DNA of 64,000 nt, from positions 1 to 64,000 of IMG/VR virus record IMGVR_UViG_3300025864_000001. One strand, written 5' to 3'. This DNA is from a virus. The notes below the pieces were generated by a model. It had not been told where the DNA came from. It saw nothing but the letters and a program-made list of their open reading frames with translations, and searched no databases. How positions within the stretch are numbered: position 1 is the first letter of the stretch; each line of letters opens with the position of its first letter. The translations under genes and the position numbers were made by a program. Shown here one piece after another: positions 21,506-36,528 of this stretch.

Positions 21506-21835
21506 TTAATATTCAGTACTCTTCTTTATTGTATATCGCTCAATGAACTTCTCCATACCTCCCTTGCCCTTTCTTACTATGCTCTGCCTTCCTTTCTCTA
21601 TCGAAGCAGTACTAACCTTCATTATTACCACATCTTCATCATCATAATAGCTAAACCTCTTTCTCGTGAAGATATCCACTAATACCCCTTCAGAAAGACC
21701 CGTACGCTTACTCAGTATCCTCTTATTTGTACAACCACCACACTTAATACTCTTGTCCCCTATCCCTAATTTTTTATAATAGTAAACAAACAGTTCTTTC
21801 CCCGTTAATCGTATGTCTATCCCCCTTACTCCCAT
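21506..21835 (-). CDS. Hypothetical protein
   Basis: First gene of the leftward block. Confidence 0.6.
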   Translation of the reverse strand: MGVRGIDIRLTGKELFVYYYKKLGIGDKSIKCGGCTNKRILSKRTGLSEGVLVDIFTRKRFSYYDDEDVVIMKVSTASIEKGRQSIVRKGKGGMEKFIERYTIKKSTEY

Positions 21836-22211
21836 GTCTTTTTTCTTCTAAAAACTATTCTATGTGATACCAGTAGTTATTTCAAATTACTAATCGGTGT
21901 TCTATGTGGTGTAAATTAACAACCTTATTTTGAATCTACCAAATAAAATACCACAATTCTGCACTTTACCCTAAGTGTGCGTGTCCTTGCAGTCTATATA
22001 CATGTTTTCGGTTGGTCGCGTATTTCCAAAATCGAAAACGCGAACCCACCAGCCCCCTTCTGGGACTCCGGCAACTTTACCGGACCATATAAAGCGCGTT
22101 ATTGTCTCCTGATCAGCAAATAAAGCGGTTTGTAATACTATTCAATAGGGTAGGGGAGGGCATTACATTAGCACAATGCCGATGCCTGTCTGATCAATGC
22201 AAATACATTCT

Positions 22212-22239
22212 ATTTGACATAATAATTATTATAGGCTTT
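22212..22239 (-). other. dif-like XerC/XerD recombination site
   Basis: Minus strand AAAGCCTATAA-TAATTA-TTATGTCAAAT: 11-6-11 layout, XerD arm one mismatch from TTATGTTAAAT. Confidence 0.75.
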
Positions 22240-22421
22240 ATATGATAGGGGTCTGCATGCGTGCGTTTAGCTGTGTGCTGTGCGTTCTGATTGCCTCATT
22301 AATTGTGCCTTTGCGTGTGCTTTTATCTGTTTGCATGTTAATTATATGCTTTAATATTATGTAAAATAGCACAGTAAACGGGCTAAAAGTGTGTAATATT
22401 GTGGTTTTAAGTGGCTGACGA

Positions 22422-23039
22422 TTGAATACTCACACAAATAACGGACCAATGGCAGGACAAACGCGACCAAATGAGGCAAACGACCTGAATAACGGTCATT
22501 CTCTTTCTTCTCTTCCTTCCTTACCTGTAAGTCTGAATGGTTTATATCAGGTGTTAAATGATGATATGAAGAGGCTATTTATTAAGATGTACAATTATTT
22601 ATGGGGTGTTGTTAATGGTTATTCGGTGCGGTCCTGTGGCGTTGTGTCATATTATTGGCTATTGTCCCGTGTTGCTGCCTCTTCTTCTCTTGCTCCTTCT
22701 TCTCTGGTCCTGCTGTCATATCTTTATATGATGACAAGTAAAGGAACTAAGTTAATACATTCTAATATTGTACATAATAGTGGGGTGTTGCCTGGTGCGC
22801 TGCCGATTACTGTCCAGCGTGTAACATGGGACCTTAAACATGCCGGATACATTACCAGACATACAAAAGATCCCGGCCAACCTTACAGCCAAAGGGCACA
22901 ACATAACAAACAGCCGGTTTATATTCGCCTTACTCCTTTGGGCTTGCGTGTCATTGAAGATATGACAAAGGACATTAACAAACTATTGCTTAATACTTCG
23001 CTTAATGATCTTACAGGGGTGAACATAAAAAAACCCTGA
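22422..23039 (+). CDS. MarR-like winged-helix protein
   Basis: L.LLSYLY...TVQRVTWDLKHAGYITR...VYIRLTPLG; true start uncertain. Confidence 0.65.
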   Translation: MNTHTNNGPMAGQTRPNEANDLNNGHSLSSLPSLPVSLNGLYQVLNDDMKRLFIKMYNYLWGVVNGYSVRSCGVVSYYWLLSRVAASSSLAPSSLVLLSYLYMMTSKGTKLIHSNIVHNSGVLPGALPITVQRVTWDLKHAGYITRHTKDPGQPYSQRAQHNKQPVYIRLTPLGLRVIEDMTKDINKLLLNTSLNDLTGVNIKKP

Positions 23040-36187: not shown

Positions 36188-36528
36188 AATTCCTCCTGTC
36201 TAAATGCGTTTACAACTTCACAGACAAAGTTACCAGCACCAAGTCCTCCGATGACACCTATTACAGCGAATAGCCACCAAGGGGTAAATACTATTATGTA
36301 AAATAGACTCAGCAGAAACACAACCCATGGACTGACACAGAAGCAGCACCGGATAAATTTCACCAGCATTGAATCGGATACATGGTCAATCAGATGACGG
36401 TTATTCACAACCTCAAGGTACTTGCCAAATTTGCGGAAGACCATATTTTTACGAATTATACGAGTCCAGAAGCAGGAGAATAACCCTGCAAGGATTCCGA
36501 GATACATCATGTTTACTATGTGATTCAT
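36184..36528 (-). CDS. DUF1360-like membrane protein
   Basis: TM helices around CCFCVSPW; start MNHIV at 36528. Confidence 0.55.
   Translation of the reverse strand: MNHIVNMMYLGILAGLFSCFWTRIIRKNMVFRKFGKYLEVVNNRHLIDHVSDSMLVKFIRCCFCVSPWVVFLLSLFYIIVFTPWWLFAVIGVIGGLGAGNFVCEVVNAFRQEEL

Follow-up and report, generated by a model that had tools for sequence, protein, structure and literature searches.

A dif-like site beside a candidate FtsK guide motif in an integrase-less 78-kb tailed phage genome: a predicted target for the XerCD recombinases of the host

Within the control region of a large tailed phage genome, a 28-bp element resembling the dif sites of bacterial chromosomes lies close to a short motif that matches the consensus for sequences orienting the DNA pump FtsK in Escherichia coli. 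The element occupies positions 22212–22239 of the window, which is the whole stretch of DNA that was analyzed: bases 1–64000 of the 78,468-bp IMG/VR record IMGVR_UViG_3300025864_000001 (record-wide scans cover the full 78,468 bp). The ends of the record overlap by 127 bp and the assembly is therefore circular. Encoded within it are a portal protein, a large terminase, a primase-helicase, RecE-like and RecT-like proteins, and tail fibre proteins. Nearly all of the genes are on the minus strand, the exception being a plus-strand block at 22.4–31.6 kb, and the gap at 21836–22421 is therefore the sole divergent control region of the genome. No near-identical DNA was found among GenBank phages, and the closest cultured relatives of the terminase, with 27–30% identity, are phages of Flavobacteriia (Cellulophaga Pachyviridae and phages of Flavobacterium, Maribacter, and Tenacibaculum). 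A search with the terminase identified 68 related viral loci in IMG/VR, together with 80 metagenome contigs and three genome contigs. One phage-sized contig with 86% terminase identity was binned in a metagenome-assembled genome (MAG) of the Prolixibacteraceae, and another with 57% identity in a MAG of the Planctomycetota. The element and the sequences closest to it are arranged as follows.

22148–22160, + strand: candidate FtsK-orienting motif GGGTAGGGGAGGG, made of two overlapping GGGNAGGG octamers (GGGTAGGG and GGGGAGGG); aimed at the XerD arm and ending 51–56 bp from it
22208–22211, + strand: conserved TTCT flank, directly outside the XerD arm; TTCT or a near variant is present in most relatives and at several host dif sites
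22212–22222, − strand: predicted XerD-binding arm, reading TTATGTCAAAT; 10 of 11 positions match the E. coli XerD arm, and it is the same as the arm predicted for Capnocytophaga
22223–22228, no strand: central strand-exchange region of 6 bp, TAATTA; five variants in 12 relatives
22229–22239, − strand: predicted XerC-binding arm, reading AAAGCCTATAA; its inner CCTATAA is that of the Flavobacterium johnsoniae dif arm

On the + strand the element reads ATTTGACATAA TAATTA TTATAGGCTTT, and its reverse complement is AAAGCCTATAA TAATTA TTATGTCAAAT. This is a dif-type layout, in which two 11-bp arms flank a 6-bp spacer, with an inner palindrome ATAA-N6-TTAT and an XerD arm of the form TTATGTnAAAT. The 28-mer is unique in the window when up to three mismatches are allowed, and it was matched in none of the shuffled sequences. 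When the genome was scored with a weight matrix derived from the chromosomal dif of 13 Prolixibacteraceae, the site reached 16.7 bits, the highest value in the 78 kb, compared with 10.0 for the runner-up and 10.7 for the best of 20 shuffles; the exact 28-mer has no match in IMG/VR. A preliminary description of this DNA had proposed a full 28-bp dif-like site at this location, and that proposal is borne out by the sequence, its uniqueness, and its rank as the top match in the genome. The DNA immediately outside the XerD arm, where the phage has its TTCT flank, affects activation by FtsK in E. coli (PMC2673442).

Comparison with the dif sites of Bacteroidota, which had been suggested at the same time as a check, places both arms close to those of the host lineage. 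Among the Bacteroidetes sites predicted by Kono et al. (PMC3025954 supplement), that of F. johnsoniae reads TTGACCTATAA TTTATA TTATGTAAAAT and that of Capnocytophaga reads AATGGTTATAA TGTATA TTATGTCAAAT. For Prolixibacteraceae we defined dif as ATTTAACATAA TAT[TC]AA TTATA[AG]GACAA, which has one perfect match in 13 of 61 genomes. In two complete genomes GC skew switches sign exactly at this position (from +0.05 to −0.05 and from +0.03 to −0.06), and the switch is also seen in a contig of a third genome. The core pattern is present in 226 of 401 Bacteroidia genomes, mostly as a single copy (224 of 399 without G263 and G177, which are flagged as unpublished). The site in the window matches the host dif at 21 of 28 positions, those of the closest relatives match the host dif at 25 of 28, and the outer XerC arm of six phage relatives reproduces the GGAC of the host XerC arm.

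Two types of additional match in the bacterial genomes were examined and rejected as terminus sites. Second dif-like sites with the spacer TAATTA, at G396:C1:467421 and G423:C71:31539, belong to a conserved chromosomal near-palindrome, ATTTAACATAA TAATTA TTATTTAAATA, which lies at a gene end and has neither a GC-skew switch nor phage genes nearby. The 12 pattern matches in another Bacteroidia genome (G277) consist of one true dif and 11 copies of a dispersed repeat starting ATTTAACATAAATCC[ATC]ATTAT, which may mark the end of a small mobile element. As a separate observation, the chromosomal dif of Prolixibacteraceae directly follows the terminator hairpin of a conserved gene and often has TTCT or TCCT before it, a flank that is kept by the phage sites.

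The conservation of the site was assessed in 12 distinct relatives with terminase identities of 57–87%, five of them complete. Each of the 12 holds one ATTTNACATAA-N6-TTAT site per genome, located at the syntenic divergent gap; the five complete relatives have exactly one perfect copy each, and one of the seven others (G017) has a single base changed. Conservation of the surroundings is much lower, with 67–71% identity in the flanks where these can be aligned (G003, G001), short pieces alone in G002, and no alignable flank in G004 and G005. Within the site, the only position of the XerD arm that varies across the 12 relatives is the fifth (G, A, or T), which is also the variable position among Bacteroidota dif sites. 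The spacer takes the forms TAATTA, TATTAA, TGATAA, TAATAG, and TAATAA, and the bases of the arms beside it do not vary. The XerC arm follows TTAT[AG][AG]G[ACT].. and drifts outward, with six relatives reading TTAT[AG]GGAC.. compared with TTATA[AG]GACAA in the host family. The site was not found in more distant phages, either those whose terminases are at most 39% identical or four from GenBank (three cultured and one metagenome-assembled). A fixed XerD arm, a free 6-bp spacer, and a host-like XerC arm form, at the level of sequence, the conservation pattern of dif, far beyond what chance would give. Absence from relatives had been named beforehand as the result that would count against the site, and it is present in all of the 12. 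These findings support the prediction that the 28-bp element is a true XerC/XerD site of the dif class, with the character of those in Bacteroidota.

The most informative feature of the locus, overlooked in the preliminary description, is the motif beside the XerD arm. GGGNAGGG is the E. coli consensus of the FtsK-orienting polar sequences (KOPS). The two overlapping octamers at 22148–22160 are the only copies on the + strand of the 78-kb genome. The motif recurs in the same orientation, 26–56 bp outside the XerD arm, in 11 of the 12 relatives, with T, C, or G at the free position and no variation elsewhere. In E. coli, loading of FtsK on a single arm suffices for recombination at dif by XerCD only when that arm is on the XerD side, and on short DNA a triple KOPS placed less than 114 bp from dif increases recombination more than 10-fold (PMC2673442). 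FtsK is stopped by the XerCD-dif complex (PMC2800217), and KOPS, which occur once per 12.6 kb, point away from the origin and towards the terminus with a skew of 0.91 (PMC3384302). The recognition helix of the FtsK gamma domain in the host family (IGYNRAGRIMDQLE) is similar to that of E. coli (IGYNRAARIIEQME).

The combination of site and guide extends well beyond this group of phages. IMG/VR was scanned for a dif core followed within 25–55 bp by GGGNAGGG pointing inwards. The arrangement seen here, with the motif on the XerD side and aimed at the site, was found in at least 118 contigs, compared with 17 for a control layout in which the XerD-side motif is inverted and 37 for one in which the motif lies on the XerC side and is aimed at the site. 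Among the matches listed, about 97 of the at least 118 contigs share no protein with this phage, and many contigs have two or three copies of the guide motif, in tandem or overlapping, for example GGGTAGGGGGTAGGGTAGGGGAGGGG. Ten proteins sampled from the unrelated contigs point to tailed phages with three terminase and portal types, and a few module-bearing contigs have XerC arms of a proteobacterial type (TTATGCGC) in GC-rich DNA. In all 54 of the other module-bearing contigs with a recognizable large terminase gene (terL), the module lies 51–1822 bp upstream of it, across three unrelated terminase families. The composite module was found in none of 401 Bacteroidota genomes, where the chromosomal dif has no adjacent guide motif. 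A search of IMG/VR for a module of Firmicutes type, in which a dif arm of the Bacillus subtilis or Staphylococcus aureus type is combined with the SpoIIIE motif GAGNAGGG, gave no match with two strict patterns; this result speaks neither for nor against a role of FtsK.

A further feature of the genome is the lack of enzymes that could act at such a site. The tyrosine and serine recombinase families (PF00589 and PF00239) have no match at E≤1 in the 78,468-bp record, with positive controls, so that the earlier statement of no visible integrase, made from the window, extends to the whole of the record. PF00589 is also absent from 20 other module-bearing contigs, eight of which are at least 90% complete. 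Scans of 102 open reading frames (ORFs) against Pfam and PHROG detected no ParA or ParB, no repressor of a known family, and no other lysogeny or maintenance family. The partition system and maintenance genes by which phage-plasmids of the P1-like or N15-like type are recognized are thus not found in this genome.

The reading that we favour, with somewhat more confidence than doubt, is that the phage carries an FtsK-activated site for host XerCD, a Bacteroidota dif that forms a two-part cassette with the guide motif, and that it acts on the phage's own episomal DNA in multimer resolution or circle formation. What has been observed is the sequence and uniqueness of the site, its conservation, its likeness to host dif, the bias in position and orientation of the guide, and the absence of recombinase and partition genes from the phage; we infer XerCD binding, FtsK dependence, and the biological role. 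In the proposed mechanism, host XerD would bind 22212–22222 and XerC 22229–22239. The septal pump FtsK would load on GGGTAGGGGAGGG, 51–56 bp outside the XerD arm, and translocate to the site, where it would halt at the XerCD complex and its gamma domain would activate XerD for the first strand exchange, leaving XerC to finish the reaction. Wherever the site is present twice, as in a dimeric or multimeric circle, a concatemer, or a terminally redundant molecule, recombination between the copies would yield circular monomers. FtsK is active at the closing septum, and the phage genome would therefore pass through successive host divisions as a free circular episome, in a carrier or plasmid-like state. 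For this task the phage would depend wholly on enzymes of the host, whereas P1 uses its own Cre-lox.

Several observations weigh against this reading. A stable plasmid state is not independently supported, given that neither a partition ATPase nor a repressor of a known family was found, and the ParA-type ATPase PF01656 is also absent from 15 near-complete module-bearing genomes. FtsK acts at the septum only, which does not suit a rapid lytic cycle well. Regulation could also account for the conservation of the site, given its location in the sole divergent control region of the phage. In one relative (G008) the site is present and the guide motif is missing. The other six copies of GGGNAGGG in the genome are all found on the minus strand, which is the coding one, and there is no replicon-wide convergence of guide motifs on the phage site in the 78-kb genome. 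Around host dif, 18 copies of GGGNAGGG point towards the site and two away from it (90%; about one per 12 kb in genome G063), a skew that is not significantly above the 78% found for octamers of the same composition, although GGGNAGGG is the most skewed arrangement of its composition there; when the 400 kb surrounding two host dif sites were searched de novo for octamers with a skew, the result was too noisy. Any identification of the guide used by FtsK in Bacteroidota therefore depends chiefly on the phage modules and on the similarity of the gamma domains. Reading the motif as a guide appears well supported by the phage sequences, and the host side is consistent with it. We know of no biochemical study of XerCD and FtsK from Bacteroidota, nor of any experimental study of dif and KOPS in this phylum.

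The same site could in principle serve a different purpose, with host XerCD inserting the whole 78-kb genome at the chromosomal dif in the terminus, as they do for filamentous vibriophages and Bacteroidota microviruses, which belong to the integrative mobile elements exploiting Xer (IMEX). A phage that has no recombinase and yet has a dif-like site with two host-like arms would suit this description. The commonest host spacer, TATTAA, is that of three relatives (G002, G005, G010) and of the phage contig in the Prolixibacteraceae MAG, and there is a precedent in the same phylum in microvirus proviruses flanked by dif-like sites (PMC3091885). We nevertheless consider integration unlikely. No integrated copy was found among the 68 viral, 80 metagenome, and three genome contigs; no form flanked by dif-type sites, including the related prophages that the preliminary description had suggested looking for, was detected in the contigs and genomes searched; and integration would preserve the module, which is in none of the 401 Bacteroidota genomes. 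Four of the five spacers in the clade, including the TAATTA of the window, are not among the listed spacers of true host dif sites, a mismatch that would be harmless for recombination between phage molecules and a hindrance for recombination with the chromosome. No junction with host DNA at the site was present in the contigs of four metagenome runs, a comparison in which contigs cannot show rare forms (runs with a small share were excluded from claims on habitat). It is also relevant that, from work on E. coli and Neisseria, a prophage with a complete dif and an FtsK guide is expected to be prone to excision at cell division, which counts against integration.

The absence of an integrated copy, the absence of the module from the 401 genomes, and the spacer mismatch thus favour action of XerCD on the phage's own DNA over integration, although rare or unsampled lysogens may exist. 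The preliminary description had offered host XerCD for both of these uses, and it is the resolution of circular dimers that is favoured; integration at the chromosomal dif is left without support. The temperate or carrier lifestyle that it drew from the site, together with iterons and an antisense leader, is plausible but unproven. The contigs with related terminases are all 78 kb or smaller and several are circular, with one exception of 216 kb. This metagenome contig, C687J13896_1000012 (216,338 bp), has three terminase copies exactly 72,083 bp apart. It therefore consists of three 72-kb units of a relative joined head to tail, and reflects either a true concatemer or an artefact from the assembly of a circular genome.

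A second half-site in the control region had been likened to the paired sites of CTXphi.

22355–22369, + strand: second XerD-type half-site, with TTATGTAAAAT at 22357–22367; before it are a spacer-like TTAATA and a degenerate XerC side at 22340–22350

The arm lies within a stretch of 15 nt that forms an inverted repeat with 22210–22224 (93% complementarity). Its XerC side, AATTATATGCT, is degenerate, and the TTAATA before it is the commonest host spacer. The bare 11-mer with one free position is not rare by itself: it has three copies in the window compared with 0.65 expected, and three are reached in eight of 100 shuffles. A second half-site is present on the XerC side in six of the 12 relatives, inverted in four (+145, +145, +147, and +75) and direct in two (+86 and +87), and is missing from the other six. 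Its recurrence is too frequent for chance, yet it is not a fixed part of the module; extra binding of XerD and a relic of past recombination are candidate roles. The inverted arm with its degenerate partner is therefore real as sequence, as had been described, and its status as a fixed feature is not supported by the relatives. The attP of CTXphi needs a single-stranded DNA genome that folds two inverted dif-like sites into a forked hairpin. Because the genome considered here is double-stranded and 78 kb long, with the terminase and portal of a tailed phage, the hairpin model does not apply, and the analogy also fails on a second arm that is missing from six relatives and direct in two. A third copy of TTATGTAAAAT, at 36294–36304 (+ strand), is inside a minus-strand gene, has no partner arm, and is probably due to chance.

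A variant of the favoured reading, differing in the moment of action, would have XerCD circularize the injected linear genome at a cyclization site near the start of packaging, as loxP may do in P1, provided that the site falls within the terminal redundancy. The sites for packaging (pac or cos) are usually upstream of terL, and loxP of P1 is near pac, so that the position of the module upstream of terL in 54 of 54 other contigs lends this idea some weight. In the present clade, by contrast, about 15.7 kb separate the site from terL. The repeat of 127 bp in the record results from overlap in the assembly and is not evidence of virion ends, the site is away from the contig ends in complete relatives classed as linear, and among whole small contigs the module is not enriched at the ends (15% within 5% of an end, compared with 10% expected). 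An activator bound to the septum would, moreover, be unsuited to a reaction just after injection. As an account of the site in this phage, cyclization has a small probability.

About equally improbable, as a sole explanation, is a promoter or operator for a phage protein, with a likeness to dif that arises by chance or from AT-rich palindromy; as a second function of the site it is possible. This alternative draws on the setting of the site, and the remaining features of the control region are as follows.

21506–21835, − strand: first gene of the leftward block, from the ORF map, with no family match; the block runs through the start of the record and includes the terminase and portal genes
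21937–22147, no strand: conserved non-coding block upstream of the guide motif, with AAGTGAG, CCGAACCCGCCCCC, and two ATAAAGCG boxes 31 bp apart, from an alignment of 11 relatives
22422–23039, + strand: first gene of the rightward early block, with a product predicted to be a DNA-binding protein of MarR-like winged-helix type; translation probably starts from the ATG at 22450

In metagenomes from peat and soil, the summed contig depth over the conserved block is 3–10 times the value for its flanks. The block matched nothing in Rfam, contains no tRNA, and showed no conserved structure in consensus folding. The product of the rightward gene has no match in Pfam or PHROG. It has 34 homologues, all in related phage contigs, one of which was named a Fur-type regulator by the Joint Genome Institute. 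Its AlphaFold model has a mean predicted local distance difference test score (pLDDT) of 70, and the best Foldseek matches are regulators of the MarR family (E 1e-4, with a template modelling score, normalized to the target, of 0.5–0.67). From this model it may be regarded as a candidate regulator of the control region, with little bearing on lifestyle. A search of IMG/VR with the neighbouring 205-amino acid protein confirmed no relatives, and no replication initiator was recognized among ten rightward ORFs.

Regulation is suggested by the position of the site in the sole divergent intergenic region, by TTGACA on the + strand and TATAAT on the − strand, and by the adjoining gene for a winged-helix regulator. 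The sequence TTCTAT[GT]TG, with four copies in the 78-kb genome, has three in the control region, all on the + strand (21858, 21900, and 22208), and three + strand copies are found nowhere else; the one at 22208 overlaps the start of the XerD arm. These are possibly boxes for a regulator or promoter, or degenerate XerD half-sites. A consensus scan for sigma-70 promoters and terminators found nothing at the site, however, and promoters of Bacteroidota differ from that type in having TTTG at −33 and TAnnTTTG at −7. The G of TTTG is not kept at this site, being A or T in seven relatives. Changes of TTGACA to TTAACA or TTTACA and of TATAAT to CATAAT or TATAAC are seen among relatives, and those of TATAAT are tolerated by dif and not by a −10 box. 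The outer XerC arm copies the GGAC of the host, and the same module recurs in about 97 contigs, among the matches listed, that share no protein with this phage, including those of unrelated tailed phages with regulators of their own. A cassette that acts as a decoy, diverting XerCD and FtsK or stalling FtsK so as to disturb division or segregation of the host, is very improbable: a replicating phage would offer many copies of a high-affinity site with its loading motif, but each genome has one copy and no array, and the data do not call for it.

Exploitation of Xer by mobile elements is already known, as is the presence of dif with KOPS on replicons, and in the literature searched we found no description of a module of dif and guide in tailed phages. 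We tentatively propose, as an idea with slightly less than an even chance of being right, that a portable cassette of FtsK guide and dif, in many integrase-less tailed phages (a crAss-related peat clade and unrelated lineages of Bacteroidota and Proteobacteria phages), links free circular genomes to the division machinery of the host and allows carriage with neither recombinase nor partition system, in a carrier state or pseudolysogeny. This addresses the open question of how phages that appear virulent, those of crAss-like type among them, stay with their hosts over long periods in the absence of lysogeny genes. A conserved XerCD site with an FtsK loading signal provides a testable molecular handle, from which one would expect the episome to be circular and to undergo processing at the septum of the host. 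It would extend viral use of the Xer system from small single-stranded DNA phages and non-tailed phages to large tailed phages. The modules suggest GGGNAGGG as the FtsK guide in Bacteroidota, and if the proposal is true the phage cassette would indirectly reveal that guide sequence. The sequences of the arms track the lineage of the host and could aid the assignment of hosts to uncultured phages.

Several known systems share part of this arrangement. The dif site of E. coli and the dif1 and dif2 sites of Vibrio cholerae have the same 28-bp layout, with an XerD arm that differs from that of the phage at one of 11 positions in E. coli, and with GGGNAGGG aimed at the site; the phage arms are near those of Bacteroidota dif. 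Unlike a chromosomal dif, the phage site is on a 78-kb genome with a dedicated guide 26–56 bp from the XerD arm and without converging motifs across the genome. IMEX (such as CTXphi, VGJphi, and TLCphi, the microvirus proviruses of Bacteroidota described by Krupovic and Forterre in 2011, and the gokushoviruses of enterobacteria) are likewise viruses that have no recombinase and bear a dif-like site for host XerCD. They are small single-stranded DNA or satellite elements integrated at dif, and their sites are imperfect, involving either a hairpin attP or the absence of an XerD arm together with the activator XafT. The present genome differs from them in being that of a large tailed double-stranded DNA phage, with both arms complete, an FtsK guide, and no integrated copy found.

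Cre-loxP of P1 resembles the proposed system as a recombination site on a circular phage genome that would serve in dimer resolution and possibly in cyclization, and many of the other phages with the module have the site beside their packaging genes. P1 has its own recombinase and partition system, whereas here these would have to be supplied by the host or be absent. At cer of ColE1 and psi of pSC101, host XerCD act on an extrachromosomal circle, as is proposed here for the phage. Those sites are independent of FtsK and have about 180 bp of accessory sequence on the XerC side, bound by PepA and ArgR or ArcA. In the phage, the conserved accessory feature is instead an FtsK guide on the XerD side, and the flank on the XerC side is GT-rich and poorly conserved. 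A parallel in layout to the guide is found in engineered 3xKOPS-dif substrates, on which FtsK-activated recombination in vitro is efficient on short DNA (Bonne et al. 2009, PMC2673442). In both, one to three KOPS are aimed at dif from a position a few tens of bp beyond the XerD arm, and the phage module differs from these substrates in being natural and not designed.

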